A DNA stretch of 47,427 nt from Myxococcota bacterium (GCA_036229005.1 JAZAMN010000063.1:1-47427), one strand, 5' to 3'; shown: positions 570 to 41,918, counted from the first letter of the stretch. The notes: generated by a model from the sequence alone, not told the origin. A program made the numbers and translations.

Positions 570-1373
570 ATGCTCCTCCTCCTCGCCACCCTGGCCCACG
601 CCGCCCAGACCGTCGTCATCGAAGTCGACCGCGGCCCCCTCGACGCCGCCCCCATGCTCTCCCTGCGCGGCGGCGGTGAGCAGCTCGACCAGGCGTGCCG
701 CGACGACGGCCAGGGGCGCGACCGCGTACGCAACGACAGCATCCACACCTGTGTCGCCCAGGCCCCCGGCTACCCCCTGGAGCTGCTCGTGCGCTGGGGC
801 AGCGGCGAGGCCAGGCACCAGCTCGCCCAGCAGCCCTCCGGTGACCTCACCCTCCGATTGGGCCCCGATGGCTTCGAGCCCCTGGACCTCTCCAAGCTGC
901 GCCAGCCGCCACCCCAGCCCCAAGGCGCCGACCCTCTCTCCCGGCCCGGCACCACACAGACCTTCTGGGCCCTGCTCGTGGGGATCGTGGCTCTCGGGGC
1001 GGCTGCCTTCACCCTCTGGCCCCGCCGCCTGCCCGCCGGCCTCTCTTGGGATCCCCCCACCCGCGAGGACACCCTCCCCCTGACCCTCCCCCAGGCCCAC
1101 GCCCGCTTCTCCGGCCAGGGCCCCGTCCTCGTCGTCGGCCAAGCCCCCGTGGACGCTCCCGCGCTCCACGCCAAGTCCACCGACGTCCAGGACCTGCTCG
1201 ACACCCTGCGCCGCATCGCCCGCGCCCAGCCCCTCCAGGCGCGCACCCTGCTCATCCCCGCCGACGCCACCCTGTCAAACCCCGGCGACGTCGGCCTCAG
1301 CCCCCGCGAGCGCCTGCTGCGGGACGCGCCCCCCGGCACCCGCGTCGTCTTCCTGACCACGCCCACCGCCTGA
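570..1373 (+). CDS. Hypothetical exported single-pass membrane protein
   Basis: Short signal MLLLLATLAHA (alternative ATG at 561), a DDG..D...D.I.T motif resembling choice-of-anchor X, and a TM helix FWALLVGIVALGAAAFTLW. The upstream part of ORF 294 is translated repeat DNA. Confidence 0.7.
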   Translation: MLLLLATLAHAAQTVVIEVDRGPLDAAPMLSLRGGGEQLDQACRDDGQGRDRVRNDSIHTCVAQAPGYPLELLVRWGSGEARHQLAQQPSGDLTLRLGPDGFEPLDLSKLRQPPPQPQGADPLSRPGTTQTFWALLVGIVALGAAAFTLWPRRLPAGLSWDPPTREDTLPLTLPQAHARFSGQGPVLVVGQAPVDAPALHAKSTDVQDLLDTLRRIARAQPLQARTLLIPADATLSNPGDVGLSPRERLLRDAPPGTRVVFLTTPTA

Positions 1374-1388
1374 ACCCGGGAGACCCCC

Positions 1389-2735
1389 ATGCTGCCCCTG
1401 CTCCTGACCCTCCCCGCCGCCGCCCAGCTCCAGCCCGGCGAGTGGGGCGTGAACGACACCCCCGACATCCTGCTCATGGGCAACTCCTACACCTTCTACA
1501 ACGGCGGCTTGGACGCCGCGCTGCGCCCCATGCTCGAAGAGGGCCTCGGCGTCAGCGAGGTCCGCGTCCGAATCCTCGCCGAGCCCGGCCGCAGCCTCGC
1601 CGACCATGCGGGCTGGGCCGCCGACCCCGAGCACGCCTGGAACCTCGCCCTGGAGGAGGGCGAGTGGGACTACCTCGTCGCCCAGGACCAGTCCCAGATC
1701 CCCGGCTTCCCCCAGACCGAAACCTACTGGCAGGACAGCCGCGACGCCGCCGTCTACCTGGGGCAGCGCGTCAACGACCAGGGCGGCGAGCTCGTCCTGC
1801 TCATGACCTGGGGCCGCCGCGACGGGGACAGCCAGAACGCCAGCCTCTACCCCGACTACGCCACCATGCAGGCCCGCCTGGAGGACGGCTACCTGGCCTA
1901 CGCCGAGGCCACCCAGGGCCGCATCGCCCCCGCCGGGCTCGCCTGGGAGGTCATCCACCAGGACATCCTGGACGACGGCGGCACCCCCACCGACAACCCC
2001 GGCTTCACCGACCTCTACGTGGCCGACGGCTCCCACCCCTCCGTCGAGGGCACCCTCCTCGCCGCCTCCGTCATCTACGCCAGCATCACCGGCCGCAGCC
2101 CCATCGGCCTGACCACCGCCTACCAGGACGTCAGCGCCGCTCGCCGCGACCAGCTCCAGCAGGCCGCCCACCGCGCCGTCTTCGAGTCCGGTCCCGGCCG
2201 CGTCCCCATGCCCTATCTGTGGGAGGACGACCGCATCGCCCAGGCCGGCGGCGTCCTCAGCCACGGCGGCCAGTGGGTCACCGGCTACGTCAGCGACCAC
2301 CAGGGCGACCTCGTCCTCTCCGAGACCAGCACCGCGTGGATCGCCGGTCAGCTCGACGGCGCCATCCTCGGGGACGGCAAGGTTGTCCTCGCTGGCACCT
2401 GGATGCTCCCTGAGCTCGGCGTCACCCTGGAGGGTCAGTTGGTGGGGGAGGGGACCCTGGTGCTCCCCGATCTGCCCTCACCCGGAGACACCATCCTCCA
2501 GGCCAACACCTGCGACGATCTCTCCACCGTCGAGGTCATCGGTCCGCAGGGCGACCCCGTCCCCGTCGTGGTCGAGGGCTGCCTGCTCTACGCCTCCAAC
2601 GGCGAGCCCAGCGACGACACCGGCCTCTCCTCGGACCCCGGCGGCTGCGGCGGCTGCGCCCACGGCCCCGGCGGATCGCCCGCCTGGATCCTCCCCTTGG
2701 TGCTCCTGGGACTCGCCCGGCGCCGCGATCCCTGA
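1389..2735 (+). CDS. SGNH/GDSL-type hydrolase (DUF4886-like) with MYXO-CTERM-like tail
   Basis: GNSYT block I, QDQS and DGSHPS catalytic motifs, C-terminal GGCGGCA...WILPLVLLGLARRR, and a GGAG RBS. Confidence 0.85.
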   Translation: MLPLLLTLPAAAQLQPGEWGVNDTPDILLMGNSYTFYNGGLDAALRPMLEEGLGVSEVRVRILAEPGRSLADHAGWAADPEHAWNLALEEGEWDYLVAQDQSQIPGFPQTETYWQDSRDAAVYLGQRVNDQGGELVLLMTWGRRDGDSQNASLYPDYATMQARLEDGYLAYAEATQGRIAPAGLAWEVIHQDILDDGGTPTDNPGFTDLYVADGSHPSVEGTLLAASVIYASITGRSPIGLTTAYQDVSAARRDQLQQAAHRAVFESGPGRVPMPYLWEDDRIAQAGGVLSHGGQWVTGYVSDHQGDLVLSETSTAWIAGQLDGAILGDGKVVLAGTWMLPELGVTLEGQLVGEGTLVLPDLPSPGDTILQANTCDDLSTVEVIGPQGDPVPVVVEGCLLYASNGEPSDDTGLSSDPGGCGGCAHGPGGSPAWILPLVLLGLARRRDP

Positions 2736-2789: not shown

Positions 2790-4988
2790 ATGACCTTGCT
2801 CGCCCTGTCCTTCCTCGCCTGTTCCACCGAGCCGCCCGATGACCTGGATGTCTACAGCCAGGCCCACGGCTGCTACGCCCTGCGCTCTGGGGGCAAGTAC
2901 CTGGTGTCCTCCGACGACCAGGTCGCTTTCTCCACCCGCAGCGTGGACGAGGCCACCGCCTTCCGCTTCCAGCCCGCGGACCTGGGGAGCTACCTGCTCT
3001 ACGACCCCGAGCGCGGCTTTGTGGTCAATGAGAACCAGACGGACCTGCAGCGCCTCACCGAGCTGGAGTCCGACGTCACCCTGGTCGACGACGGCTACAT
3101 CTCCGGCGCCCAGTGGTCCCTGACCGCCCACGCAAAGCACGGCGACCGCTTGGCCCTCAAGAGCGACCGCACCGGACTGTGGTTGGACGAGAAGGGCCTG
3201 GTGGAAGAGGGCACCAAGGCCGCCGACCTGGAGCTGGAGCCCGTAGACGGCTGCGCCGACTTCCCCGAGCTCAGCGTCGACGCCGAGGGCGAGATCGGCA
3301 TGACTGTGTGGGAGGACGGCGAGCTCTACGGCTATGTCGACGTCCACTCCCACCTGCTCACGAACTTTGGGTTCGCCGGCGGCATGTATCACGGAGCCCC
3401 CTTCCACCCTCTGGGCGTCGAGCACGCTCTGCACGACTGCGCCGTCGTGCACGGGGAGATGGGCAGAAAGGACATGTTCGGCTGGGTCTACGACAACCAG
3501 GGCAACGGCGGGGACCTGACCGAGGCCCTGCCCATGATGTTGGCCGGCGAGATCGAAGAGGACAACCACTACACCGACGGCTACCCCACCTTCACCGACT
3601 GGCCCCACGCCAACGAGCGCTTCACCCACCAGACACAGTATTACAAGTGGCTGGAGCGCAGCTACCTGAGCGGCCTGCGTCTGGTCGTCCAGCACGCCAC
3701 CACAAACTCTGTCATCTGCCACCTGACCGTCGGCGAGGAGTGGTCACCCGCCCGCTATTCGTGTGAGGACATGGTCGGCGTGGACCGCGAGATCGAGGGC
3801 GCCTACGACATGGAGCGCTACATCGACGCCCAGAGCGGCGGCCCGGGCCAGGGCTGGTTCCGCATCGTCCGCACCCCCGAGGAGGCCCGCCAGGTCATCG
3901 AAGAGGGCAAGATGGCCGTCATCCTGGGCATCGAGACCTCCGACCTCTTTGACTGCCACCTCACCCCCCGCGAGGGCGGCCCGGTCTGTGATGAGGCCTA
4001 CGTCGACGCCCAGCTCGACCACTACTACGACCTGGGTGTGCGCGCCCTCTTCCCCAACCACAAATACGACAACGCCTTCACCCCTGGCGACGGCAGCGAT
4101 GGCTTCATCGAGGTCGGGAACTTCCTCAACTCCGGCCACTACACCAACAAGGTACAGAACTGTCCCGAGGGGGTGCCTGGCAACTTTGACGGCGGCAGCG
4201 TCACCTTCTCCGGCCTGCTGGAGCCCCGGGACGAGTATCAATCCGACCCCCCCGAGGACGTCAGCGGTGTCTACGGCGACGAGCCTCTGGACGCCATCTT
4301 GCCCTACGCCCTCAAGCTCACCGGTGGCGGCGTGGACGGCCAGCACTGTCAGAACGGAACCCTCACCCCAATCGGCGAGTATCTCATCAATGGCATGATG
4401 CAGCGCGGCATGATCATCGAGGTCGACCACCTCCCCATGTGGTCCTACGTGCGCGCCGTCGAGATGCTCGAGGCCAACGACTACCCCGCCGTCGGCACCC
4501 ACGGCCGCGACTGGGACGGCAAGATCTTCGCCCTGGGCGGCACCACCTTTGGCAACTTCTCCCGCTGCCATGACGCACAGAACCCCGGCGCTGCCATGAA
4601 TGGCTACAACGAGCGTCTCCAGCGCAAGATCGACGCCGGCGGCCACGCCAGCCTGGGCTTTGGCTTTGACTACAACGGCCTGGCCAGCGGTCCCCGCAAC
4701 CGCTTCGGCGACGACTCTCCCTGCGTCGACCAGACCGACCCCGTGACCTACCCCTTCACCTCCTACGATGGCTCCATCACCTTCACCGAGCCCGTCGCCG
4801 GCGAGCGCGTCTTTGACTACGGCACCGAGGGCATGGCCCACATCGGCCTCATCCCCGAATACATCCAGGACGCCCGCAACGACGGCGCCACCGACGCCGA
4901 CCTGGAGCCCCTCTTCCGCTCCGCCGAGGGATACGTCCAGGTCTGGGAGAAGGCCGTCGCCCGCGCGGAGGCCGGGGCTGGGCAGTAG
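2790..4988 (+). CDS. Lipoprotein of the amidohydrolase/membrane dipeptidase (M19) fold, ceramide N-deacylase-like
   Basis: Lipobox SFLAC, N-terminal beta-rich domain, DVHSH, ILGIE, IIEVDH, GFDYNG and GMAHIGLIPE motifs. Confidence 0.8.
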   Translation: MTLLALSFLACSTEPPDDLDVYSQAHGCYALRSGGKYLVSSDDQVAFSTRSVDEATAFRFQPADLGSYLLYDPERGFVVNENQTDLQRLTELESDVTLVDDGYISGAQWSLTAHAKHGDRLALKSDRTGLWLDEKGLVEEGTKAADLELEPVDGCADFPELSVDAEGEIGMTVWEDGELYGYVDVHSHLLTNFGFAGGMYHGAPFHPLGVEHALHDCAVVHGEMGRKDMFGWVYDNQGNGGDLTEALPMMLAGEIEEDNHYTDGYPTFTDWPHANERFTHQTQYYKWLERSYLSGLRLVVQHATTNSVICHLTVGEEWSPARYSCEDMVGVDREIEGAYDMERYIDAQSGGPGQGWFRIVRTPEEARQVIEEGKMAVILGIETSDLFDCHLTPREGGPVCDEAYVDAQLDHYYDLGVRALFPNHKYDNAFTPGDGSDGFIEVGNFLNSGHYTNKVQNCPEGVPGNFDGGSVTFSGLLEPRDEYQSDPPEDVSGVYGDEPLDAILPYALKLTGGGVDGQHCQNGTLTPIGEYLINGMMQRGMIIEVDHLPMWSYVRAVEMLEANDYPAVGTHGRDWDGKIFALGGTTFGNFSRCHDAQNPGAAMNGYNERLQRKIDAGGHASLGFGFDYNGLASGPRNRFGDDSPCVDQTDPVTYPFTSYDGSITFTEPVAGERVFDYGTEGMAHIGLIPEYIQDARNDGATDADLEPLFRSAEGYVQVWEKAVARAEAGAGQ

Positions 4989-4995
4989 GGGAGTT

Positions 4996-5391
4996 GTGGC
5001 GATTGAATACACGCTTTACGCGGCAGAGCCGATCTCCGGGATTCCAATCCCGGGCGCTTGTCGAGATTCTTCAGTTCGACCGACGAGGTACAGCCTCTCT
5101 GCCTGTTCGTGGGTGCCCTTGCCAGTGGAAGGCCGAGTTGCCCAGTTTGTGGAGGAAGACCATCGTCTGGTCCCTCGGGAGATGATCATCTTCCGTCTGG
5201 ACAAGTTCAATCAAGTGGTGGCGAGCCGCCAGTTGGCCGTCGTTCTGAGGGCCCTGGTCGGCAACTCGCATGGAGAGTTGCTACTTCTCTTCAACGGGGA
5301 GCATGTGGTGCTTCGCCGCGGGAGGCAAGGCTTGTGGTTGGATGAACAGTCGTTGCCGATGCAGTATTTCGCCGAGACTGCGCCGGAGTAG
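4996..5391 (+). CDS. SitI3-family-like immunity protein (orphan)
   Basis: A GTG start inside ORF 4768 gives MAIEYTL...EEDHRLVPREMIIFRLDK...GELLLLFNGEHVVLRRG..LWLDE. This follows the recalled SitI3 pattern (MA(I/L)EY.L...FRL.K...LLFNGE.IVL.R). Confidence 0.65.
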   Translation: MAIEYTLYAAEPISGIPIPGACRDSSVRPTRYSLSACSWVPLPVEGRVAQFVEEDHRLVPREMIIFRLDKFNQVVASRQLAVVLRALVGNSHGELLLLFNGEHVVLRRGRQGLWLDEQSLPMQYFAETAPE

Positions 5392-5452
5392 CGCTTGTGT
5401 CGCGCCGGTTGGGTTCAGCTCAAACCCGTGGTTCAGCGTGCGTCGGTACACA

Positions 5453-6784: not shown

Positions 6785-6801
6785 GCGAACTCCTGTGCTC
6801 C

Positions 6802-7359
6802 TCACTGACCAACGGCGTGGACACACTCCCACTCTCCCAGCTCCTCAAACTCCACCGCCGCCCCATCGGGCCCAATCACCCGGACAGCCACACTCCCACC
6901 CGTCTCCGGCCAGGCCATCACAGATCGGTTCGTGAAGAACCAGATCTGGGCTCCAACCTGGAGCTCCACGACCACCCCTCGTTTCCATGCGTCAGGGGAC
7001 AACCAGTCGGCGGTGAGACCCACCCCGCAATCTCCGGTTTCCACCAACTCGGGGCGAGTCAGCCCGCTCAGGTCAAGCGGGACAGTACCCCCGAGAACGC
7101 TGATCTGGAACTCGACACAGTCCAGGTCATGGGTTCCCATTTTCGCGAACTCATCCATTCGCCACAGAGTGCACCCTTCGGTGTCGGTGGTCGCAGTCCA
7201 TCCTGTGAGGCAGTCTTCGTCCTGAACGGTCTCCGTTGTGGCATACCAGGGGCGGTCGCCAACGTGCCATTCCCGACTGATGGGATCACACCAGCCACGG
7301 AAGCTCTCGGGGTCCTCTGTATACGGCTCCCCACTACAACCCAACAGCAACACCCACAT
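6802..7359 (-). CDS. Hypothetical lipoprotein
   Basis: MWVLLLGC lipobox; the ATG overlaps the SRAP stop (TGATG). Confidence 0.7.
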   Translation of the reverse strand: MWVLLLGCSGEPYTEDPESFRGWCDPISREWHVGDRPWYATTETVQDEDCLTGWTATTDTEGCTLWRMDEFAKMGTHDLDCVEFQISVLGGTVPLDLSGLTRPELVETGDCGVGLTADWLSPDAWKRGVVVELQVGAQIWFFTNRSVMAWPETGGSVAVRVIGPDGAAVEFEELGEWECVHAVGQ

Positions 7360-23298: not shown

Positions 23299-25053
23299 TC
23301 AGTGGTTGGAGTTCGTGGCCCCGGGAGAAGCCAGGATCTCGCTGGCAAACTCTGGGTTCACGGCCCCGATCCCCTCGTCTCCCTGGTAGGCGCTCCAGTT
23401 CTGGGGGTCGCTGCCGTCTCCGGGGACCAGTGCCCGCTCCATGGAGCGCACCTTGCCGTCGGTGCCGAGCCCACCAGCGAACGCGCCGCCGCCGTCTCCG
23501 ACGGTGTCCACGACGTTCCCGCGGGGGTCCATCAGGAAGAGCTCCAGGGAGCCGTCCTTGATGTAGAGGCGGGACTGGCGGTTGTCGTTGAAGGCGTTGA
23601 CGACCATGTCGCCCCAGGTGTAGGCGCTGTACTCATCCTGGGGAGCCCCGTCCTCGTATGCCTCCAGGACGTGATCCACGATGAGGAAGGTCTCACCGGC
23701 CTTGATGGTGGTCCCAGGGGGGAGACCGACCGTGAAGTCGTCCACTCCCGTGATCTGCCACATGTCGAGCTTGAGGTCGCGGTCGGTCATGTTCCGCAGC
23801 TCGATGAACTCGTCGAAGCCTTCGTTGTCCGCGGAGTGGGCGCCGTACCACATGACCTCGTTGATCACGACGTCGCCGGGCTCGATGCTGTTGTAGAGCT
23901 CGCCGTCGGGGGCGTCACCGACGAAGGTGTACCCCATGTAGGTGCCGTTGTCCCAGAGGCTGGTGAAGTAGTCGGCGTAGGCCTCGGCCACGCGACCGCC
24001 CTTGAACACCAGCAGGTACTCGTCGTTGCTGACGGTCGCGGAGGAGCTCCAGTTGAAGGAGCCGGTGACCACGACGGGGTTCTCGCCATCGGCGTCGATC
24101 AGCATGGTCTTGGAGTGCAGGCGACCGCCGCCGGCCTGGTAGTCACCGGGCTGCTTGGAGGAGTCGTTGCCGTCCAGGCGCATGGGGATCTGCGCGCCCA
24201 TCAGGCGGTAGACCTCGTGGTACTGGCCGTTGGAGTGCATCTGGGACTTGTCGACCACGCCGGCCACGCCGTAGCGGGGATCCGAGCCGCTCAGGCCGTC
24301 CCAGAGGGCGTCGTCGCCGTGGAGCTCGGCCAGCTCCTCCTGCTTGCGGATGAACGCGGAGCCCACCTGGTCCTTGGTGAAGGCGAAGATGGTGAAGCGC
24401 ACGGACTCCTGGGCGCCGTCGACCAGCTCCAGGATGCGGCCCATGCTGTCCTCGTTGGGGGAGAACCAGACCTCGACCTCGGTGTCACCCAGGGTGTAGC
24501 TGCGGCCGTTGTGGAGCTCGACCTTGGAGTGCCCGAAGGCGCCGCCCCACATCTGCTCGAACTCGGCCTGGAAGTCGGCGGCCACGGCCGGGCTGTCCAT
24601 GAAGGCGAAGTTGTTGGAGTTGTGGATGAGGTCGGTGTCGGTCCAGTTGGCGGTGCCGCAGAACACGTAGCGGCCGTCCACGATCATGAACTTGTGGTGC
24701 ATGATGTGGGCCTGGTTGCCGGTGACGATGGGGATGTCCCGGTCCAGGAAGGTCTGGTAGCCGCTGTTGTAGAGGTGGCCGGCGTCACCGACCATGCGCA
24801 CCACAACGCCGCGGTCGTGGGCCCGCACGAAGGCGTCCACGACGTCCTGCTGGTAGAAGCCCATCACGGCGAAGTCCAGGGTGGCGTCGGCGGAGTCGAT
24901 GAGCTCGACCATCACGTTGACGACGTCCGGGTACCAGAGGTTCTCCAGCCGGGTGCCCGGCTCGTTGAAGAAGGTGTCGACGCGGCCGCCGCGGGTGCTG
25001 TCCAGGTCCTCTTCGGAGGGGGCGCAGGCGAGCAGGAGGAAGAGCGGGGTCAT
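23299..25053 (-). CDS. PLD-superfamily (Nuc-like) lipoprotein with two HKD motifs and a C-terminal lamin-tail domain
   Basis: LLLAC lipobox, HHKFMIVD..GTAN, HSKTMLID..GSFN, and LTD motifs VVINEV...DEFIELRN...SPG. Confidence 0.9.
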   Translation of the reverse strand: MTPLFLLLACAPSEEDLDSTRGGRVDTFFNEPGTRLENLWYPDVVNVMVELIDSADATLDFAVMGFYQQDVVDAFVRAHDRGVVVRMVGDAGHLYNSGYQTFLDRDIPIVTGNQAHIMHHKFMIVDGRYVFCGTANWTDTDLIHNSNNFAFMDSPAVAADFQAEFEQMWGGAFGHSKVELHNGRSYTLGDTEVEVWFSPNEDSMGRILELVDGAQESVRFTIFAFTKDQVGSAFIRKQEELAELHGDDALWDGLSGSDPRYGVAGVVDKSQMHSNGQYHEVYRLMGAQIPMRLDGNDSSKQPGDYQAGGGRLHSKTMLIDADGENPVVVTGSFNWSSSATVSNDEYLLVFKGGRVAEAYADYFTSLWDNGTYMGYTFVGDAPDGELYNSIEPGDVVINEVMWYGAHSADNEGFDEFIELRNMTDRDLKLDMWQITGVDDFTVGLPPGTTIKAGETFLIVDHVLEAYEDGAPQDEYSAYTWGDMVVNAFNDNRQSRLYIKDGSLELFLMDPRGNVVDTVGDGGGAFAGGLGTDGKVRSMERALVPGDGSDPQNWSAYQGDEGIGAVNPEFASEILASPGATNSNH

Positions 25054-25057: not shown

Positions 25058-26182
25058 TCACCGGGCCTGGGAGGCTGCGTGCTCCCAGAGGGCGATCAAG
25101 GCGTCCATCTGGGCGTTGGAGTCACTGCCGGGGGCGTCGTAGTCGTCCAGCACCCAGAGGCTGCCGTCCAGGAGCTGGTCGGTCAGCACGGTGGCACCCC
25201 GGTTGAGGCGAGCTGCGGAGACGACGTCATGGGACAGGCACATCGCCTTGGCGGTGTTCCAGGTCCCCCGGCGGTCGATCTGGGTGTCGACGAGGACAAC
25301 CGTGGGTACCACGAGTCCGTCGGGAAGCTGGCTGAGGGGCACGCCGGTGTCCTCCAGCGTGCTCGACAGGGAGCGGTTGGCCTCCTTGAAGTTGGGGCCC
25401 ACGATGACCTGGACGTCGAAGCCGTCCTCGTACTTGGCCTGCAGCGCGTTCGCGAGGCCCTCGTCCAGGAAGTCGTCCGTCAGCACGTAGATGTTGGAGC
25501 GGGCGCCGTAGCTGGCGTCCACGATGCGCTTGATGAGGCGCTCCTGGGGGCCGAGCCACACCTCGAGCTGCTCGTCGGACTGGGTGCCGTAGAGCCAGCG
25601 GTTGTCCGCGACGGACTTGGCGAGCGAGTCGTAGGCCGTCAGGGAGCTGGCGTCGGAGCCGCCGAAGATCTGGTTGTGCTCGATGTCCCAGTCGTAGGAC
25701 AGGTCCTGTCCGGTGGCGTGGATCATCCAGCGCATGCCGTCGCCGGGGAGCAGGCTGGAGGCGTTGAGCACCTCGGAGCGGTCCACGACCATGGCGGTGT
25801 GGGTCATCCGCACGTCCTCGGAGTCCCAGGCCACGTCGGCGTTGAGGCTGAACTCGAAGTAGGCCACGGCGTCGTCGCCCAGGGACACGGGCACGCCGGC
25901 GTCCTGGAGGGCCACGATGCCGGAGTCTTCGGCGGAGTCGATGTCGGTGGCGACGGCCACGCTCAGCCCGTCCTCGTATGCGGCGATGATGGCCGCGGTG
26001 AGATCGGCATCGACCAGGCCCGGGAGGAGGACCGCGAGATCGGAGGTGGCTCCGTCAGCCGCTTCGATGAAAGCGTCGATGACGGCGTCCCCACCGCTGG
26101 CGTCGGTGTAGGTCTCCACCGTGACCACGTTGAAGGCCTCGGTGGTGTCGGGGGCGGCGCAGGCCAGAAGGAGCAGGATCAT
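25058..26182 (-). CDS. PLD-fold lipoprotein with degenerate HKD motifs (pseudo-enzyme)
   Basis: Aligns by eye with the neighbouring PLD: MTHTAMVVD vs MHHKFMIVD, and EVWLGPQE.LIKRIVD vs EVWFSPNE.SMGRILE. Confidence 0.75.
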   Translation of the reverse strand: MILLLLACAAPDTTEAFNVVTVETYTDASGGDAVIDAFIEAADGATSDLAVLLPGLVDADLTAAIIAAYEDGLSVAVATDIDSAEDSGIVALQDAGVPVSLGDDAVAYFEFSLNADVAWDSEDVRMTHTAMVVDRSEVLNASSLLPGDGMRWMIHATGQDLSYDWDIEHNQIFGGSDASSLTAYDSLAKSVADNRWLYGTQSDEQLEVWLGPQERLIKRIVDASYGARSNIYVLTDDFLDEGLANALQAKYEDGFDVQVIVGPNFKEANRSLSSTLEDTGVPLSQLPDGLVVPTVVLVDTQIDRRGTWNTAKAMCLSHDVVSAARLNRGATVLTDQLLDGSLWVLDDYDAPGSDSNAQMDALIALWEHAASQAR

Positions 26183-26868
26183 TCGAAGGACCCCGTGCTG
26201 TAGGCGCCGGAGTAGTCCGGCGAGTTGGGGCGGCCCGGGCTGGCCAGGGTGTTCCGCTGGCAGTCTTCCGAGATGCGGTCGTTGTTGGCCACGTCGACCT
26301 CGGCCGGGGTGTAGTAGTGCCAGGCGGAGGGCTCGGTGCCGCGGCCGCCGAACATCAGCTCCACCTTCTCCATGGAGCGGGAGCGCACGTAGTCGTAGCC
26401 GCCGGCGTAGGGGGGCATGTCCTTGGAGCCCGCGGGCTCGATCAGGCGCTCGTCGCTGTCCTTGAGGGTCAGGCGGAAGGGGTCGCCGTCGCCGAAGCGC
26501 AGCTTGGGGAGCAGCGCGTCGGGCTCGGGGAAGCAGCCGGTGTCCTTGGCGGCCAGGAAGACGTGCTCACCGACCTGGACCCAGAGCTCCTGGCGGATGA
26601 CGTAGGTCTCCTCGATGGTGCCCTCCTGGTCGATGAACCAACCCTGCAGGTTGATGGGGCGCACGCCCTCGTTCCGGATCTCCACGAACACGTCGCTGGC
26701 GTCCCGGTTGCCGTCGTTGTCGACGGAGCCGGACCAGAGGACCTCGGAGATCTTGATGTTGCCGCGCTCACCGCTGCTGGTGCCGTCGGAGCTGTCGGTG
26801 CCATCCCGATAGCCGACCTGCTCCAGCCGGCCTTCAGGGGCGCCACATGCCAGGAGGAACAGGAGCAT
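26179..26868 (-). CDS. Lamin-tail-domain lipoprotein
   Basis: MLLFLLAC lipobox, IKISEV...FVEIRN....INLQGW and ASPG.PN motifs. Confidence 0.8.
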   Translation of the reverse strand: MLLFLLACGAPEGRLEQVGYRDGTDSSDGTSSGERGNIKISEVLWSGSVDNDGNRDASDVFVEIRNEGVRPINLQGWFIDQEGTIEETYVIRQELWVQVGEHVFLAAKDTGCFPEPDALLPKLRFGDGDPFRLTLKDSDERLIEPAGSKDMPPYAGGYDYVRSRSMEKVELMFGGRGTEPSAWHYYTPAEVDVANNDRISEDCQRNTLASPGRPNSPDYSGAYSTGSFE

Positions 26869-28415
26869 CAGAACCTCACGCTGGTGCCCACGCTCACGGA
26901 CCAGGGGGTGGCCTCGCCGTCCCAGCCGAGCTGGCTGCCGGCGATGCGCGAGACGGGGATCTCGTAGAACGCGCCGGGCATGAACAGCGCCCCGTTGCCG
27001 CGGAGCTGGACGTTGTCGGTGAACTGGTAGAAGAGGTCCACGTCGGCCTCGTGACCGAGCAGCTCACCCATGCGGGCCTGCGCGGCGAACTCCTCCCGGG
27101 AGTAGCCGAAGGGGGTCTCGACGGAGTCGAGGCTCTCCAGGTCGGTGTAGGTCACGCCCATGTCCTGGAAGGTCCACCAGCGGCCCTGCACGGTGAGCTT
27201 GCCGAAGTCGTAGCCCAGGCGGGCGTGCAGCACGCGGGTGCCGGACTTGCGTGCGATCTCGTGGGGCGAGTCGCTGACGCCGAACATGCCGACGTAGGCG
27301 CTGGGGTGCCAGCCCATCAGGCGGTCGGCGAACACGCCACCGGTCTGGCGGGCCTTGAGGCCGACGTAGCCGTGGCTGTACTGCAGGCCGGAGTCGCCAG
27401 AGGCGTTGCCGTAGGAGGCGCCGTCAGCCTGGAAGTAGGAGAGCTCGCCGCGGACGCCGGTCTCCTCGCCCTTGGCCATGGAGACACCCAGGGTGTAGGC
27501 CATGCCGTTGGTGTCGATGTCGCGGGCCACCAGCTCCTTGCGGTCGATGCCGCGGGAGGCGTCCACCGAGAAGTAGGGGGTGAAGGTGTCGGCCACGGTG
27601 ATGTTGCCGCGGACGCCGACGTTGGCGACCCAGTCGTTGTCCGAGAAGTTGCCCAGCAGGCCGCCCTCGGAGATGTCCGAGCCGGTGCCCAGGGCGCCCA
27701 CGTCGGTGTAGAAGCCGTAGGCGCGCAGCTCCACGTTGTCCTTGGGCTCCAGGGCCAGCACACCGCCGGTGCGCTTGGTCATGTGGTCACCGCGGAAGCC
27801 GTAGGTCTGGGTGGTGGACTGGCCGGCGTAGGACACGAAGTTGGCGTTGTCGTTGGAGCTGGACATGCCGACCACGTTGATGGGCAGCAGCTCCAGGTGG
27901 CCGATCTCGCCCAGGGGGATGTCCACGCGCACCATGTCGATGACGTCCGCGTAGATGTAGTCGCGGGCGCCGCCAAGGCCGCCGATCTCGTAGTACTGGC
28001 GGCCGACGCGGGCGGTGAAGGCCTCGCTGGTGGGGGTGAACTCCCCGTACATGGCCGTGAAGTAGACGAAGCCGCCGAACTGGTTGACGACGCCGATCTG
28101 GTCGTTGCCCCAGAGGCCTCGGTGGGAGGCGCCCAGCACGAAGCGGGTGACGCCGGCGTCCTGGTCCAGGGTGTGGGCCAGGTTCAGGTAGGCGCCGGAG
28201 AAGGCGAAGGAGTTGCGGTCGTCCGAGTCGAAGATGGCCTGGTCGCTGCTCTCATCCAGGGAGCGCAGGTCCAGGTTGTCGTACTCGAACCACTGGGCCT
28301 CGAAGCCGCCGGAGACTTCGGTGGTGCCGGACCCCTCGATCTGGGTGTCGCGGTACTCGAGGTCCCGGTCGTCCTGAGCAAAGGCGACGGCGGAGATGGC
28401 AATCAGCAGGTTCAC
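26868..28415 (-). CDS. Outer-membrane beta-barrel protein (porin/alginate-export-like)
   Basis: Signal ending AFA-Q, RVGRQ, LLGHEAD and FMPG motifs, alternating strands and a terminal Phe. Confidence 0.8.
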   Translation of the reverse strand: MNLLIAISAVAFAQDDRDLEYRDTQIEGSGTTEVSGGFEAQWFEYDNLDLRSLDESSDQAIFDSDDRNSFAFSGAYLNLAHTLDQDAGVTRFVLGASHRGLWGNDQIGVVNQFGGFVYFTAMYGEFTPTSEAFTARVGRQYYEIGGLGGARDYIYADVIDMVRVDIPLGEIGHLELLPINVVGMSSSNDNANFVSYAGQSTTQTYGFRGDHMTKRTGGVLALEPKDNVELRAYGFYTDVGALGTGSDISEGGLLGNFSDNDWVANVGVRGNITVADTFTPYFSVDASRGIDRKELVARDIDTNGMAYTLGVSMAKGEETGVRGELSYFQADGASYGNASGDSGLQYSHGYVGLKARQTGGVFADRLMGWHPSAYVGMFGVSDSPHEIARKSGTRVLHARLGYDFGKLTVQGRWWTFQDMGVTYTDLESLDSVETPFGYSREEFAAQARMGELLGHEADVDLFYQFTDNVQLRGNGALFMPGAFYEIPVSRIAGSQLGWDGEATPWSVSVGTSVRF

Positions 28416-28424: not shown

Positions 28425-29258
28425 TCAGCCGTCCAGCACTTCGAGCTGGCCGACGTTCATGATGACGATCTGGTATTCGCTGTAGCTCAAGAGCACGGGG
28501 CCGGTGACCTGGACGGTCTGACCGACCTCGGGGGCCCACTTGCGGCGGTTGATCTCCGAATCCAGGGAGACCAGGTGCTTGCTGCCGGAGGCGTCCTCGA
28601 GCTGGAACTGGCCGAAGGTGTCGGCCTCGCGGGTGACCACCCCGGTGACGCGCTTGACCAGGGCCATGTCGCTGGCTCCCAGGCTGCGTCCCTCGACCAC
28701 CTCGTAGTAGATGGCGCTGTAGTCCCGCTCCACGGACACGATGTCGTGGGCGTAGATCATGGGCAGGTCGTAGTTGGTCTTGGTGGCCCGGACGGTCATC
28801 ACCACCCGGTCACCCACGTCGAAGTGGGCCACCTTGGAGTCACCCAGCACGAACAGCCCGCCGGTGTCGTCCTGGATGAAGTAGCTGCCGTAGTACTTCT
28901 CGTCGGAGGACCGGTCGCAGCCCTGGGTCTTGAAGTAGAAGCGCGGGTGCAGCGTGACCACGCCCTGCACCGTCATGGGCAGGGAGCTGTCCGTGCTGGT
29001 GTCGCAGTCGGCGTCGTCGCTGAGGGCGTCCTCGGGGGCGTACACGATCTCGCCGGCCGTGGCCGTCTCGATCACGTCGTCCTGCAGGTCCGAGATGGAC
29101 ACCACACCGTCGACCGCCGGCAAGGAGTAGTTCTGGTCGGTGAACGCGATGGGCTCACTGACGTCGAACATCTCGCCGGAGTCGTACCAGGCGCTCCAGT
29201 CTTCGGCCTGCTCGCGGACATCGCAAGCGAGCAGACCCAGGGCAAGCAACATGGGCAT
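28425..29258 (-). CDS. Lipoprotein with tandem OB-folds (DUF5689/YhcR-OB-like)
   Basis: VQGVVT...YFIQDDTGGL.V...VGDRV and VTGVVT...LED.SG...VGQTVQVTG...YQI motifs. Confidence 0.75.
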   Translation of the reverse strand: MPMLLALGLLACDVREQAEDWSAWYDSGEMFDVSEPIAFTDQNYSLPAVDGVVSISDLQDDVIETATAGEIVYAPEDALSDDADCDTSTDSSLPMTVQGVVTLHPRFYFKTQGCDRSSDEKYYGSYFIQDDTGGLFVLGDSKVAHFDVGDRVVMTVRATKTNYDLPMIYAHDIVSVERDYSAIYYEVVEGRSLGASDMALVKRVTGVVTREADTFGQFQLEDASGSKHLVSLDSEINRRKWAPEVGQTVQVTGPVLLSYSEYQIVIMNVGQLEVLDG

Positions 29259-30088: not shown

Positions 30089-30228
30089 CTGGGACTCCTG
30101 TTCGAGTTTGCGCCCTGATACCCCATTGGGGCTCTCCGTGTGTTTCGGGAAAGCAACAGAAGGCCGGGCCACAGCAAACTGACAGGCCCCGCAGAGCCTT
30201 GCGCTACCCTTGTGCGCCCGGAGGAACG

Positions 30229-32019
30229 ATGCCCCCCCTGATGCTGCTCATCGCGCCGCTCGCCTACGCCGACGGCCTGCCTGCAGCCTCCCAGGACGGC
30301 GCCCCACTGGACGCTGGGATCCCCCTGCACCAGGCGCCGAGCGGCCAGTGGTACCAGGAGGACGTTCCGGTCTGGCGCACCGGCTCCCTGATCGTCTCGC
30401 TGGAGGAGGGAGAGGACCCGGAGTGGCTGTCCGCCCTGCCGGGCGTCGCCTCGGTGGACCACCTCCCGGGCCTGCACGCCACCTTCAAGCTGCTCATGGA
30501 TCCCGGCGCCGACGAGGTCATGCTGGCCGTGTCCCTGCAGGGCGCCCCCGGCCTGCGCTACGCCCACCCCAACCTGGCGGTGGAGCTCCACCCCACGGCG
30601 CTCCCCGACGATCCCCTGCTGGCCGACCAGTGGCACATCGAGAACAGCGGCCAGCGCAGCGAGACGGCCTGGCCAGGCGCCGACGCCAACGTGGTCCCGG
30701 CCTGGGAGACCACCTGGGGAGAGGGGCAGCTCATCGCGATCCTGGACTCCGGGGTGGACACCGCGCACCCGGACCTGGACACCGTCCCCGGGTTCACCCC
30801 CAGCGCCGGCGAGGACGAGAACCCGGACCTGGACTATTCCGGCCACGCCCACGGGACGGCCTGCGCGGGGCTGGCGGCGGGCACCGGGGACAACGGCATC
30901 GGCGTGGCGGGGGTGGCGCCCGCGGCCCAGGTGATGGGCGTGCGCCTGCTGGGCGAGATCCAGGAATACGCGGACATCTACGAGTCCATCGTCTACGCGG
31001 TGGACGGCGGCGCGACCGTGCTCTCCAACTCCTGGGGCATGGGGGAGGGCTGCCCGGCGTACACCCTGCCCGGGGTGGTCAAGGACGGCCTCTACTACGC
31101 CGAGGAGGTCGGCCGCGACGGGCTGGGCAGCGCCTGGGTCATGGCCATGGGCAACGACGGCTGCGACGCCAGCAGCGAGGGCTTCTTCCGGGTCAGCTCC
31201 ACCATCGCGGTGGGGGCCAGCACCGACCAGGACGCGCTGGCCGACTACTCCAACTACGGCGCCCGCATGGACCTTGTGGCCCCCAGCGGGCAGAGCGGGC
31301 GCCCCATGCTGCTGACCACCGACATCTCCGGCAGCGAGGGCTACGGCGCCTACCTGGGGGACGCCGACTACACCGGCCAGATGTCGGGCACCTCGGGCGC
31401 GACCCCCATCGTGTCCGGGGCGATCGCCCTGATGTTCGCGGCCAACCCCCGCCTGGACATCTGGAGCCTGCGCGAGGTCCTCTGCGAGACCGCGGTGCGC
31501 GTGCGCCCCGAAGAGGCCCAATACGACGACGAGGGCCGCAGCCTGCACTACGGGTGCGGGCGCATCGACGTGGCCGCCGCGGTGGCCGCCGTCGCCAACA
31601 CCGCCCCGGCGGCGCCTGTGCTCTTGACGCCCAGCGGCGAGATCTACCTGGACCAGGCCACCCTGCGCTGGGAGCCGGCCGTGGACCCCGACGCCGAGGC
31701 GCTCAGCTACGAGGTCGAGTTCACGCCGGCGAGCAACCCCGAGGGGAGCTGGTCGGTGGAGACCTCGGAGACCGCGCTGGATCTGCGACCCGATGTCCTC
31801 GCTGGTGAGGGGGTGTCCTTGCGGGTGCGCGCGGTGGACGCGTGGGGTCCAGGGGTGTGGAGCGATGCGGTGGCGCTCACGATCCTCTCCGACCCGACCC
31901 CTCCGGAGACGCCGACGGCGTCGGGCTGTCAGAGCGCGCCGGGGACCGCCCCCGGGGCCTGGTTGTTTGCGCTGGTTGTTGGAATGATCGGCCTCAAACG
32001 CCGGGAGTTGCGCGCATGA
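30229..32019 (+). CDS. S8 subtilisin-like serine protease with Fn3-like domain and MYXO-CTERM-like tail
   Basis: ILDSG, HGTACAG and GTSGATP triad, C-terminal SGCQS...WLFALVVGMIGLKRR, and a GGAGG RBS before the ATG at 30229. Confidence 0.93.
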   Translation: MPPLMLLIAPLAYADGLPAASQDGAPLDAGIPLHQAPSGQWYQEDVPVWRTGSLIVSLEEGEDPEWLSALPGVASVDHLPGLHATFKLLMDPGADEVMLAVSLQGAPGLRYAHPNLAVELHPTALPDDPLLADQWHIENSGQRSETAWPGADANVVPAWETTWGEGQLIAILDSGVDTAHPDLDTVPGFTPSAGEDENPDLDYSGHAHGTACAGLAAGTGDNGIGVAGVAPAAQVMGVRLLGEIQEYADIYESIVYAVDGGATVLSNSWGMGEGCPAYTLPGVVKDGLYYAEEVGRDGLGSAWVMAMGNDGCDASSEGFFRVSSTIAVGASTDQDALADYSNYGARMDLVAPSGQSGRPMLLTTDISGSEGYGAYLGDADYTGQMSGTSGATPIVSGAIALMFAANPRLDIWSLREVLCETAVRVRPEEAQYDDEGRSLHYGCGRIDVAAAVAAVANTAPAAPVLLTPSGEIYLDQATLRWEPAVDPDAEALSYEVEFTPASNPEGSWSVETSETALDLRPDVLAGEGVSLRVRAVDAWGPGVWSDAVALTILSDPTPPETPTASGCQSAPGTAPGAWLFALVVGMIGLKRRELRA

Positions 32020-32744
32020 GCCTGCTCCTGTTGCTGGGCTGTGGCGGCGCACCGCTGGTCTTCTCGGACTACGAGGTGGCGGCGACCTCGTTCTGTGGGG
32101 CGCCGGCCTCGCCCTCGCACTCGCGGCTGCGCTGGGTGGGGGAGCGGCAGACCACCCTGTCGCTGCAGATCGACCAGGGACGCCGCGCGCTGGCCGGGGG
32201 CTCGCTCTTTGCGAACCTGTACACCGAGGGCGAGCTGCCCGTGGATCAGTACGAGGTGCAGCTCGACAGCGAGGGCCGCCTGGAGCTGGACACCGCGGCG
32301 CTCCCGGAGACGGACGCGGTCTGGGCCTTCGTGTTCACCCGGGCCTGGGACAGCGACGAGGCCCTGGGCGAGCTGTGGCTGGAGCCTCTGGAGGACGCGG
32401 GCCCCACCATCCTCTGCGCCGGGCACATCAACGACCAGGGGCAGCTCGGCGAGCCCACGGCGCTGGCGGACGGCGCCACCTTCGAGCTCTGGGCCTTCAC
32501 CCACGACGCGGCCGGGCTGGACCTGACGCTGGCCATCGAGGGGCAGGCGGAGGGCTCGCCGATCTCCGTGGAGCTGGGCTCGGCCACCGGAGAGGTCAGC
32601 GCCTCGGAGGAGGTGGGCGGCTGGGTGAGCCTGAGTGTGCCCAGCGGCGCGGATCTGGAGCAGGTGGCGGTCTCGGGCAAGGCCAGCCTCTGGGACGGCG
32701 GCAGCCTGGTCTCCGAGCTGGGCTTTGTGCCCAACGTCGAGTAG
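32016..32744 (+). CDS. Hypothetical lipoprotein
   Basis: ATGA overlap with the protease stop; MSLLLLLGC lipobox. Confidence 0.75.
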   Translation: MSLLLLLGCGGAPLVFSDYEVAATSFCGAPASPSHSRLRWVGERQTTLSLQIDQGRRALAGGSLFANLYTEGELPVDQYEVQLDSEGRLELDTAALPETDAVWAFVFTRAWDSDEALGELWLEPLEDAGPTILCAGHINDQGQLGEPTALADGATFELWAFTHDAAGLDLTLAIEGQAEGSPISVELGSATGEVSASEEVGGWVSLSVPSGADLEQVAVSGKASLWDGGSLVSELGFVPNVE

Positions 32745-32819: not shown

Positions 32820-33740
32820 ATGCTGCTCGCTCTGTCCACGCTCGCTCTCGCGGAGCCCTGCCAGATCTCCCTCAGCGTCCACATCACCCCCTACGGCACC
32901 CCCATCGAGGGGGCCGACGAGCTGCTCTACGGGGGCACCCGCCCGGCGCTCCGGGACACACCGCTGGCCTGCAGCAAGGAGTCCTGTCACCAGGCGCTGG
33001 ACTACGACTGGAAGGCGCTGCAGGGCGAGCTCTCCCGGGTCAAGCAGGCCTGCCCGGCGCACGAGCGCGTGACCCTGGTCGCCCAGGAGGACACCCGCTA
33101 CGACACCCTGAGCAGCGCGGCCCGGGTCGCCAGCGAGGTGTTCTCCGAGGTGATGATCGGCGGCACGGTCGCGGTCTCGGAGAAGAAGCCAGGGGCTCAG
33201 CAGCTCACGCTCACGGCCCACCAACGGCACCGGATCGATGGGGTCGAGACCTCGGAGTGGGACTTTGGCGCCGGCGAGGTCATCGAGCTGCAGGTCGAGG
33301 CCCCCGCGGAGCTGCCCTTCTCGGAGCTGCGGCCGGCGCTGCGCACGGCCTCGGAGGCGGGGTACCGGCGCTTTGTGCTGGCCCGGGAGAACGGGCAGGT
33401 GGTCGCGAAGGTGGCCGCCAACGCCGGCGGCTCGCTGGCCAAGGTGGTCAAGGGCAAGCTCTCCGCCGCCCAGGTCCAGGCCGGCGTGGTGGGGATCCAG
33501 GGGCAGCTCGGGGAGTGCTACAACGCCGCGCTCGCCCGTGACCCCAGCGCCGGCGGCGCGGGCAGCGTGGAGTTCCGCATCCAGGCCGACGGCAGCGTGT
33601 CCAGCACGTCCATGGCCAGCGGCGGCTTCCAGGACGCGGAGCTGCAGCAGTGCGTGCTGGACGCCTTCATGCAGGCGAAGTTCGATGAGCCCGGTGGGGT
33701 GCTCACGGGCACCTTCCCGCTGACCCTGGCGGTGGAGTAG
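32820..33740 (+). CDS. Exported protein with two ExbD/TolR-like periplasmic domains and an AgmX/PglI-type TonB-C domain
   Basis: YDWKAL..EL..VK...P....VTLV...DTRYDTL and VEA...LPF..L...L.....AG...F motifs, then CYNAAL..DP...G...F.I..DGSV....L.QCV. Confidence 0.75.
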   Translation: MLLALSTLALAEPCQISLSVHITPYGTPIEGADELLYGGTRPALRDTPLACSKESCHQALDYDWKALQGELSRVKQACPAHERVTLVAQEDTRYDTLSSAARVASEVFSEVMIGGTVAVSEKKPGAQQLTLTAHQRHRIDGVETSEWDFGAGEVIELQVEAPAELPFSELRPALRTASEAGYRRFVLARENGQVVAKVAANAGGSLAKVVKGKLSAAQVQAGVVGIQGQLGECYNAALARDPSAGGAGSVEFRIQADGSVSSTSMASGGFQDAELQQCVLDAFMQAKFDEPGGVLTGTFPLTLAVE

Positions 33741-34189: not shown

Positions 34190-36118
<1,929 letters not shown>

Positions 36119-40262: not shown

Positions 40263-40388
40263 GCGGCTGAGCTTCGGCTCTAGGCGGGGTCCTCGGGGTC
40301 GGGGGCCCCGTCGCTGCTCTGGGGACAGAGCGGGCTTGCGTTCTCTCCCAGGCGGGGGCAGAGTCCTGTCCTGAACGGAGGGGGCGAG

Positions 40389-41918
40389 ATGCTCTTGTTG
40401 TTGCTGGCGTGTGGCGCATCCGAGGACAGCGCTGCGGAGGACACGGCGCTGCAGTCCTGGATCCTGGATCCCGTGGCTGCGCCCTACCAGTTCACCCAGG
40501 AGGAGGTCCCCAAGGCGCCCTTCTACGATGGCCAGCAGGCGGCCATGTCCGTCTTCGCGCAGGGGGACCTTGACGCAGATGGCGTCAACGACCTGGTGGT
40601 CATGAGCTACAACCCGGTGCTGCTCTGGTACCTCCCCGGGGTGGCCGGTGGGGGGCTCGGGGAGCCAGATCTGCTGCTTGAGCTGGAGTATCCCCACGAA
40701 GGGGTGCTCGCGGACCTGACGGGGGACGGGGTGGCTGACTTCGCCCTCGTGGGGCAGAGCTCGACGCTGTTGGTCGGCGGAGGCTCCCTGGCCTTTCCGG
40801 ACGGCGGCGTGGCCTTTGAGCAGGGCTGCGACAGCGCTGTGGCTGTGGTCACGGATGGGACGGGGGTGCCCCTGCTGGTGAGCGGCTGCGGGGTCTCGGC
40901 GGACACCGCCTTGTTGGTCCACAGCTTTGATGCTGACGGCAACGCGAGCTGCGAGAGGGTCGAGTTTCCGGACCTCTATGGCGTCAGTGATGTCGAGAAC
41001 ATCGGAGATGTCAACGGCGACGGCTATGCCGATCTGGCCCTGGGGGTCGAGGTCGCCGAGAGCCCCTTCCTGAACCGCGTGGTGGTCTCCCTGGGCGGCG
41101 CCCAAGGCTTCTCCTGGAGCGTGGACCACACGCTGGAGCCGGCGGAGCCGGACGACGACTTCTTCGGGCTGAGCATCGCGGGGCTCGGCGACGTGGACGG
41201 GGATGGGATGGCGGACTTCGCCGTCGGCGGGAAGGAGACGGTCGCCATCTACAAGGGCTCAGCGGAGGGCCCCCAGTTGTGGCAGCGGCTCCAGAACCCT
41301 GAGCCCGACGAGACCACCTTCGGCCATGTGGTTGCACCGGCCGGGGACCTGAACGGTGACGGGGTCCCGGATCTGGTGGTGGACTCGAACGGGTATCTGG
41401 CCTACGCAGGCGGCCAGGAGGGCTTCGGAGAGGCGCCCATGGCCGACTCCCGAGATAGCTGGGTCTCGGAGGGGGGGCTCAGAGGGGGCGGCCCGCCGAC
41501 CCCCGGCGGGGACATCAACGGTGACGGCGTCGATGACATGGTGCTCGCGCTCTCCAGCACCCAGCGCTCCAACGGCCCCATCCTCTGGTATGGAAGCTGC
41601 CGGCAGCGCCACTACGCGGACCTGGACGGCGATGGCTTCGGCGACCCCGAGACCTTCCAGGACACCTGTGCGCCCGACTTTGTCAGCGCGCTGACGGATG
41701 GGGACTGCGACGACACCCACCCCGGGGTCAACCCGCTGGCCCCCGAGACCCCCGGGAACGCTCTGGACGAAGACTGCGACGGCGTGGTGGAGCCGGGCGA
41801 TACCGGGGTCGAGGAGGAGGAGGAGGCGGGGAGCTGCAGCACCACGCCGGGCACACCGCTCAGCCTCTGGGTGCCCGCGCTGCTGCTCGGGCTGGCGCTG
41901 CGCCGACGAGGTCATTGA
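40389..41918 (+). CDS. FG-GAP (integrin-alpha-like) repeat protein with MopE-like repeat and MYXO-CTERM-like tail
   Basis: MLLLLLAC lipobox, GD.NGDG..D repeats, DGDCDD..P.VNP and GSCST...LLLGLALRRR. Confidence 0.85.
   Translation: MLLLLLACGASEDSAAEDTALQSWILDPVAAPYQFTQEEVPKAPFYDGQQAAMSVFAQGDLDADGVNDLVVMSYNPVLLWYLPGVAGGGLGEPDLLLELEYPHEGVLADLTGDGVADFALVGQSSTLLVGGGSLAFPDGGVAFEQGCDSAVAVVTDGTGVPLLVSGCGVSADTALLVHSFDADGNASCERVEFPDLYGVSDVENIGDVNGDGYADLALGVEVAESPFLNRVVVSLGGAQGFSWSVDHTLEPAEPDDDFFGLSIAGLGDVDGDGMADFAVGGKETVAIYKGSAEGPQLWQRLQNPEPDETTFGHVVAPAGDLNGDGVPDLVVDSNGYLAYAGGQEGFGEAPMADSRDSWVSEGGLRGGGPPTPGGDINGDGVDDMVLALSSTQRSNGPILWYGSCRQRHYADLDGDGFGDPETFQDTCAPDFVSALTDGDCDDTHPGVNPLAPETPGNALDEDCDGVVEPGDTGVEEEEEAGSCSTTPGTPLSLWVPALLLGLALRRRGH

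Follow-up and report, generated by a model that had tools for sequence, protein, structure and literature searches.

How short can a natural export signal be, and can it dispense with the basic n-region? The question is raised by a stretch of DNA of 47,427 nucleotides from a Myxococcota bacterium (GCA_036229005.1, JAZAMN010000063.1:1-47427), called the window here, which is contig C63 of a genome (G000) of 6.4 Mb in 74 contigs with 70% GC. A sequence-only reading of the window had described lipobox cysteines at residues 8-12 behind purely hydrophobic starts, together with leaders of about 11-13 residues of the kind cleaved by signal peptidase I (SPase I), and had suggested an altered mode of recognition by Sec, the signal recognition particle, Lgt and Lsp in this lineage. 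A canonical Sec signal comprises a basic n-region, an h-region of about 10-15 residues and a c-region, about 20 residues in all. This tripartite signal peptide is among the oldest rules of protein export, and the short leaders depart from it. To our knowledge, every signal predictor is built on the rule.

The short N-termini are real translation starts. Hundreds of genes in the genome begin with Met and 6-12 uncharged hydrophobic residues, and their sequences make it likely that these are working export or lipid-anchor signals. The canonical model of prolipoprotein signals, with n-region, h-region and lipobox, is set out in PMC9360617, which cites Vlasuk 1983 and Iino 1987. The n-region of signals for Sec and SPase I averages about 4 residues with a minimum of 2 (SignalP 6.0 preprint). 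A literature search that extended to main texts, and not to supplements, found no description of such short uncharged leaders.

The short N-termini as translation starts

All 13 leader strings quoted in the sequence-only reading are present in the window on direct inspection (Table 1), eleven of them with the start codon as quoted; those at 28415 and 36118 begin with GTG and not ATG. The reading had also held that several starts are fixed by gene coupling or have no in-frame start upstream. The overlaps TGATG (7359 and 26868) and ATGA (26182 and 32016) agree with the coordinates. In ten of the thirteen (1389, 2790, 20192, 25053, 26182, 26868, 28415, 32820, 36118 and 40389) the codons from the previous in-frame stop to the start include no ATG, GTG or TTG, so that the short length is the maximum; eight of these have the stop at a distance of 3-35 codons, and at 26182 and 26868 the open frame runs across the upstream gene without a start codon. 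The starts at 570 and 32016 are not bounded in this way, and 7359 has a TTG one codon upstream. Purine runs resembling Shine-Dalgarno (SD) motifs precede several window starts (20192, 28415 and 40389).

The genome was surveyed with a crude gene set of our own, in which 4612 frames from stop to stop were collected, each having 90 codons or more and showing the coding signature in GC content at third codon positions (GC3). A lipobox was sought after seven uncharged hydrophobic residues and no more than 60 codons from the first possible start, and leader length was measured from the farthest possible start, which makes it a hard upper bound. The screen yields 614 lipobox genes among the 4612 frames. 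With this measure the cysteine falls at residue 13 or earlier in 320 of the 614, and its position peaks at 8, 9 and 10 (74, 78 and 73 genes), so the extension of the window's pattern to the whole genome is borne out, with a mode of 8-10. The leaders of these 320 genes are 7-13 residues long and nearly devoid of Lys and Arg, which occur in 7/320, a count that follows partly from the construction of the screen because charge is barred from the seven positions before the cysteine. The start is ambiguous in 194 of the 614 lipobox genes, and a simple rule based on SD motif and start codon places 112 of these at Cys 13 or earlier.

The pattern of start codon, uncharged stretch and lipobox with the cysteine at 8-14 occurs at 310 of 4592 first possible starts (6.8%) and at 184 of 93478 internal start codons (0.2%), the latter being start codons at least 70 codons inside genes that served as the null control; the enrichment at gene starts is thus 34-fold. 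The pattern starts are ATG in 226 genes, GTG in 64 and TTG in 20. GGAG or GAGG stands at -12 to -9 of 58.7% of them vs 17.2% of the internal controls, and upstream of the pattern starts the DNA no longer shows the periodicity of three bases typical of coding sequence. The SPase I-like pattern of 9-14 residues with an AxA end followed by a polar stretch is found at 152 of 4592 first starts vs 382 of 93478 internal ones, part of these matches overlapping the lipobox class (...LACA). As a separate feature of the short-leader starts genome-wide, a run of C (47-56% C) occupies -5 to -1, downstream of the SD-like GGAG, e.g. gagacccccATG.

These stop bounds, the positioned SD motif and the enrichment at starts uphold the view that the leaders are true N-termini. 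The alternative is that the N-termini are really longer and have been obscured by wrong start calls, non-standard starts, stop read-through or assembly errors. It can point to the two window examples with possible upstream starts (570 and 32016) among the 13 and to the 194 ambiguous genes. The in-frame stops upstream of the 320 short-leader genes, at a median distance of 10 codons, are TGA in 196, TAG in 97 and TAA in 27, and so no single recoded stop explains the short N-termini; recoding or read-through of TGA was rejected, as 124 of the 320 stops are TAG or TAA. Moreover, for all eight window proteins that were looked up, public annotation and independent assemblies agree on leader and length. 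The protein starting at 28415 has a stop-bounded leader of 13 residues in 4/4 species of the genus, three of them in addition to the present one. Beside the SD motif, these facts leave the alternative hardly credible.

The DNA from 18250 to 28200 of the window is also present in marine and seawater metagenomes from several studies. Contigs from RNA libraries are at least 99% identical to parts of four short-leader genes, one of them across the start at 25053, which is a mere hint, as contigs can show neither transcription nor starts nor levels.

Short leaders as candidate export signals

It is probable that the short hydrophobic N-termini, being true starts, are functional minimal signals of the Sec type that combine a Leu-rich core with a lipobox or an AxA site. 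The lipobox with its cysteine at the precursor N-terminus is as in signals for Sec and signal peptidase II (SPase II), although the screen itself demands it. The basic n-region of such signals is absent, and so is the usual leader length of about 15-25 residues, the median cysteine position being 10 here, compared with 18 among the canonical leaders of the same genome and 21 beyond the order. In the SPase I-like class the h-region and the AxA end are found and the n-region is missing; cleavage is predicted from this arrangement.

The canonical class consists of 100 of the 614 lipobox genes in which the cysteine necessarily lies at residue 14 or later; Lys or Arg is present in 72 of these 100, and the median cysteine position is 18 (e.g. 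MKRLTTTPLLAATLLGALSTLVAC). Leu makes up 64% of the core in short leaders vs 45% in canonical ones. Two ideas on how the classes differ were tried. An acidic mature N-terminus that would offset the missing positive charge was rejected, since the net charge of residues +2 to +21 is -2.55 behind short and -3.17 behind canonical leaders, acidic in both. A division of labour between protein classes was not seen among 28 proteins sampled from each leader type, as both are found on MopE, FG-GAP, HEAT, LTD and phosphodiesterase-type families.

The orthologues of the FG-GAP lipoprotein at 20192 connect short leaders with ordinary ones. The motif C-[NQSTV]-DY is kept in the 10 of 12 fetched loci whose N-termini are readable, the other two (L009 and L012) being long open frames. 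The leaders are MLLAVLALAC, MLLVLMALAC, MVLFMTLAC and MLLLCLAC in genera g1 and g9, MLRTARLSPALLLVGFAFGC, MERPVIAFSSLLFLGLQAGC and ...VKALWWAPLVLTGC in other genera of the family, and a long basic leader in another family. Judged by these N-termini, the cysteine of the short leaders is orthologous to the lipobox cysteine of canonical leaders in relatives. Likewise, the orthologue of the 28415 protein in family f5 (G022) has a leader of 22 residues with an Arg.

A second alternative accepts the short N-termini as real and denies that they are export signals, so that the proteins would remain in the cytoplasm or adhere to the membrane from the cytoplasmic side, with an unlipidated cysteine. In its favour, a hydrophobic core of 5-7 residues does not suffice to span a bilayer. 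In a Pfam scan of 28 random short-leader proteins, 2 belong to clearly cytoplasmic enzyme families, 14 have no family and 12 fall into exported-type or repeat families. On the other hand, the domain content is typical of exported proteins; in the window it includes FG-GAP, MopE, phospholipase D (PLD) with lamin-tail domain, PMP repeats, DUF4886 and a subtilase neighbour. The cysteine and the residues that follow are conserved with orthologues bearing full canonical lipoprotein leaders, the pattern is enriched 34-fold at gene starts, and the SPase I-type leaders end in AxA before a polar stretch. We regard this alternative as very unlikely, and retain minimal export signals as the preferred reading.

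Distribution across relatives

Leaders were sampled from 17-140 kb of each of 21 relatives with the same pipeline, starts being chosen by SD motif and codon, which gave 1-12 lipobox genes per genome. The median cysteine position is 10 in genera g1 and g9 (Lys or Arg in 4/33 leaders), 14.5 in other genera of the family (28/44), 18 in other families of the order (25/31) and 21 outside the order (24/27). The lack of a basic n-region in the lineage, a point of the sequence-only reading, is supported by the 4/33 vs 24/27 at the two ends of this series.

Whole genomes were examined with a pattern free of gene calls, namely ATG, five NTN codons, KSN and TGY, which encodes M, five hydrophobic residues, an A/G/S-type residue and C. 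Reversed patterns, used as controls, gave 0-1 matches per genome within the order and as many as 6 elsewhere. The present genus has 62, 97, 76 and 51 matches (G000, G001, G002 and G003) and genus g9 has 53 and 68, followed by g2 with 28, g5 with 16, and g3, g4, g6, g7 and g8 with 1-11. In the other families the counts are 3-51 in f7 (12/12 genomes), 14-18 in f4, up to 24 in single f6 and f3 genomes, and 0-2 in six genomes of f2. Within a sample of 401 genomes of the phylum, at least 14 matches occur in 17 of 60 genomes of the order vs none of 341 outside it, where the highest count is 11 (G047, whose control is 3). According to this census the trait is confined to one order, is patchy within it and is most extreme in this genus. 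The census and the gradient in cysteine position also bear out that a lineage trait is at hand and not an oddity of the window.

SecY and the other export components

Single genes for SecY, SecA, Ffh and Lnt are present in the genome, with four for Lgt, two for LspA and several for S26 signal peptidases. Residue-by-residue comparison with relatives covered SecY and LspA; for SecA, Ffh and Lgt the presence of the genes was recorded. The suggested alteration of the Sec, signal recognition particle, Lgt and Lsp recognition mode finds partial support in one change, in the pore ring of SecY, and no support in LspA, which is unchanged, or in the copy numbers of LspA and Lgt, which bear no relation to the trait.

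Fifty SecYs were compared, 26 from the order and 24 from outside (3 of the same class and 21 of the same phylum), with numbering by alignment to E. coli SecY (PDB 5abb_A). The position equivalent to I187 is Ala (18) or Ser (8) in 26/26 SecYs of the order and Ile in 24/24 outside. The six pore-ring isoleucines of E. coli, which we take to be 82, 86, 187, 191, 278 and 408, are thus changed at one position, the other five being Ile in all 50 SecYs. Of all SecY positions conserved outside the order, this one and T168 (to S/A) alone are replaced in every sequence from the order. At the DNA level, the pattern G-N-G-[A/S]-S, which is blind to AGY Ser codons, is found in 38/60 genomes of the order, 0/18 of the same class and 2/323 of the rest of the phylum. 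The two outside matches belong to one genus (f43 g133: G135 and G301) and represent an independent Ser lineage.

The pore ring of E. coli SecY is formed by six isoleucines (PMC8082313, PMC7530735), of which I187 faces or lines the channel (PMC2171872). The prlA alleles fall within the pore ring, within the plug, at the lateral gate and in the interior of the channel, and let pass proteins with defective or missing signals (PMC7530735), while diverse substitutions in the pore ring give super-active translocation (PMC13537251). Ala or Ser at the I187 equivalent is a substitution at a residue of the PrlA-like kind, that is, of the pore ring, plug or lateral gate. No prlA allele at I187 is named in the literature searched, where I187 is reported with weak cross-links only. 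A tentative suggestion, which we put forward with rather little confidence, is that the order-wide Ala or Ser at I187 loosens the proof-reading of signals as prlA alleles do and so permitted the leaders to shrink.

S282A, at a prlA site and taken together with V97 and V98, was considered as a second step and rejected, being specific to the clade of g1, g9, g2 and g3 and not tracking the pattern counts. At the F286 equivalent, the second site of PrlA4, SecY has Ala in G024, Ile in G022 (L239 and L240) and Phe in the other 48 sequences.

LspA offers no counterpart to the SecY change. Its conserved residues are intact in 65/65 aligned sequences, and no order-specific replacement was found among the 37 from the order and the 28 from outside. 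Extra paralogues of LspA or Lgt were rejected as a correlate of the trait, which the copy numbers in the order (1-2 for LspA and 3-6 for Lgt) do not follow. No LspA was found in 1 of 31 genomes of the order (G020). A tandem cluster of lspA, lspA and lgt lies on contig C8 of G000 at 68341-71709, and an equal tandem cluster, sometimes with a second lgt, also occurs in g9 (G011 and G015), G026 and G022.

Several points weigh against the preferred reading and against the suggested part of SecY in it. About 100 canonical leaders are kept in G000, so the machinery still handles normal signals, and the same domain families bear both types of leader. The acidity of the mature N-termini likewise does not set the short-leader proteins apart. 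About 7% of the screen matches are false positives (2/28, HMGL-like and HypB-type), the gene set is home-made on the basis of GC3, and the low count of Lys and Arg is in part forced by the filter; export, lipidation and cleavage of the short-leader proteins rest on inference from sequence. As regards SecY, the change is found across the order and the extreme leaders in only part of it, with pattern counts of 0 in two f2 genomes (0-2 in four others) and in several f3 and f5 genomes, and the association of the two comprises one clade and one evolutionary event. In the independent Ser lineage the whole-genome count of the leader pattern is 0 in both G135 and G301. Genus g3, which carries S282A, has 1-5 leader matches, while f7 keeps Ser with 3-51. 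The patchiness and the Ser lineage together make the SecY change at best permissive and not sufficient.

Much of this also feeds a further alternative, in which the minimal signals are functional and the ordinary Sec, Lgt and Lsp of any diderm would accept them. Shortening would then be neutral or driven by mutation, a drift in which the start codon of a GC-rich lineage slides into the h-region, and the SecY change would be an unrelated clade marker. Such drift agrees with the unchanged LspA, with the coexistence of canonical leaders in G000, with the many genomes of the order that have the SecY change and few or no 8-residue leaders, and with the Ser lineage devoid of matches; moreover, the richer Leu core of the short leaders could suffice by itself. 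Less easily reconciled with it are the counts of at least 14, which occur only inside the order that carries the SecY change (17/60 vs 0/341), and the outside genomes of similar GC (G041 and G060), which have 2 matches each. The changed residue of SecY is also one of the pore ring and one of two order-specific replacements at conserved positions. On this evidence drift is a doubtful explanation, though one that deserves to be taken seriously.

A possible mechanism and known systems

If the short leaders are minimal Sec signals, as preferred here, a nascent core of Met and 5-7 Leu-rich residues would enter the lateral gate of SecY unaided by a basic n-region. The high Leu density would make up for the missing n-region and length, and the loosened pore ring of SecY would perhaps lower the threshold as well. 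The proteins would be threaded through SecYEG, after which Lgt would lipidate the conserved cysteine and LspA would then remove a peptide of 7-12 residues; alternatively, SPase I would cut after AxA. A core of this length does not reach across the bilayer, and during processing the N-terminus would have to lie within the membrane or the channel. In its full form the proposal reads that an order with a naturally Prl-like SecY has a relaxed gate, that several lineages within it, the present genus most of all, export and lipid-anchor hundreds of proteins on 7-12 uncharged residues, and that neither the n-region nor an h-region long enough to span the membrane is needed in vivo by Sec, Lgt and LspA. 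Taken as a whole this is rather unlikely to hold.

Compared with signals for Sec and SPase II of the E. coli Lpp type, the short leaders have the same N-terminal position, hydrophobic core and lipobox ([LVI..][AST..][GAS]C), and Lgt, LspA and Lnt are encoded in G000. In contrast, they have no basic n-region, the cysteine lies at 8-13 and not at about 18-21 as in relatives, and the core of 5-7 residues is richer in Leu. With signals for Sec and SPase I they share the hydrophobic core, the small residues at -3 and -1 and the polar mature start, and signal peptidase I genes are present in G000. However, the whole leader is of 9-14 residues without a charged n-region, whereas 22 residues with Arg are found in an orthologue from another family.

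Engineered minimal or charge-less signals in E. coli offer another comparison. Loss of the basic n-region is tolerated there with a very hydrophobic core, and a poly-Leu core of some 6-8 residues can be functional, as known from the Inouye/Vlasuk, Hikita and Mizushima, and Kendall laboratories; reportedly, core hydrophobicity compensates for charge in E. coli (Hikita and Mizushima, 1992). The missing n-region and the very hydrophobic core are common to both. In contrast, those signals are laboratory constructs and usually less efficient, whereas here they are the default leader of hundreds of natural genes.

With prlA alleles such as PrlA4 (F286Y and I408N; PMC7530735, PMC2171872) the SecY of the order shares a substitution at a channel-lining isoleucine of the pore ring, a type of residue to which prlA alleles and super-active variants have been mapped (PMC13537251). 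It differs in that the change is natural, fixed, order-wide, at I187 and to Ala or Ser and not Asn, and in that F67, I191, I278, F286 and I408 are unchanged in the SecY here.

Should the preferred reading be true, Met and 6-9 uncharged residues would bring down the natural lower limit for Sec targeting, recognition by Lgt and cleavage by LspA, and the question would arise of how 5-7 residues of core interact with the lateral gate and with active sites embedded in the membrane. A natural experiment is at hand, because canonical and minimal leaders occur on paralogous proteins in one genome and a graded series exists across relatives. If predictors reject such leaders, the counts of secreted proteins and lipoproteins for these environmental bacteria may be badly underestimated.

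Features of the window

The leaders of the window are listed in Table 1, including one lipobox leader (29223..29258) that was missing from the sequence-only reading.

Table 1. Leaders found in the window, with coordinates, strand and the evidence on their starts
Leader	Position	Strand	Remarks
SPase I-like, MLLLLATLAHA	570..602	+	Unbounded: ATG 3 codons upstream, another at 294; predicted cleavage after AHA
SPase I-like, MLPLLLTLPAAA, DUF4886 protein	1389..1424	+	In-frame TGA 5 codons upstream, no start between
Lipobox, MTLLALSFLAC (Cys 11)	2790..2822	+	In-frame stop 18 codons upstream, no start between
Lipobox, MWVLLLGC (Cys 8)	7336..7359	-	TGATG overlap with stop of SRAP gene; TTG one codon upstream only
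Lipobox, MLLAVLALAC (Cys 10), FG-GAP protein	20163..20192	-	TAG 3 codons upstream; AGGAG 8 nt upstream
Lipobox, MTPLFLLLAC (Cys 10), PLD and lamin-tail-domain protein	25024..25053	-	Stop-bounded; RNA-library contig spans start
Lipobox, MILLLLAC (Cys 8)	26159..26182	-	ATGA overlap with upstream gene; 128 open codons upstream without start codon
Lipobox, MLLFLLAC (Cys 8), lamin-tail-domain protein	26845..26868	-	TGATG overlap with upstream gene
SPase I-like (GTG), VNLLIAISAVAFA, then QDD	28377..28415	-	TGA 3 codons upstream; GAGGAAG upstream
Lipobox, MPMLLALGLLAC (Cys 12)	29223..29258	-	Found on reading the window
Lipobox, MSLLLLLGC (Cys 9)	32016..32042	+	ATGA overlap with subtilase gene; in-frame GTG at 31842 inside subtilase gene, start not strictly bounded
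SPase I-like, MLLALSTLALA, then EP	32820..32852	+	In-frame stop 13 codons upstream, no start between
Lipobox (GTG), VLLFILAAC (Cys 9), MopE/PMP-repeat protein	36092..36118	-	In-frame stop 10 codons upstream
Lipobox, MLLLLLAC (Cys 8), FG-GAP/MopE protein	40389..40412	+	GGAGGGGG upstream; 35 open codons upstream without start codon
Canonical, MKMLRLALALSLPIALAAC	open reading frame 29258-30172	-	Sole canonical leader noted in the window

The genes starting at 28415, 26868, 26182 and 25053 (23299-28415, minus strand) are four consecutive, translationally coupled genes, all with short leaders. Their products are a protein of 515 residues without an assigned family, a lamin-tail-domain protein, a weakly PLD-like protein and a protein with PLD and lamin-tail domains; the stretch looks like an operon for exported nuclease- or phospholipase-like proteins. 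The frame upstream of the start at 570 (180-570, plus strand) contains repeated units rich in Pro, Arg and His, with RNPTRMH twice, CTHPRLRT and CTHPGLRT, which points to direct repeats of the DNA in a leader region that is non-coding. GC content falls to 0.63 in 4001-8000, compared with about 0.70 elsewhere, and no frame with the coding GC3 signature lies between about 5000 and 6800. The SRAP (SOS-response peptidase) gene lies at 7359-8120 on the minus strand, and the genes for the polyphosphate kinases PPK2 and PPK1 adjoin with an overlap of 8 bases (12934-15880, plus strand).

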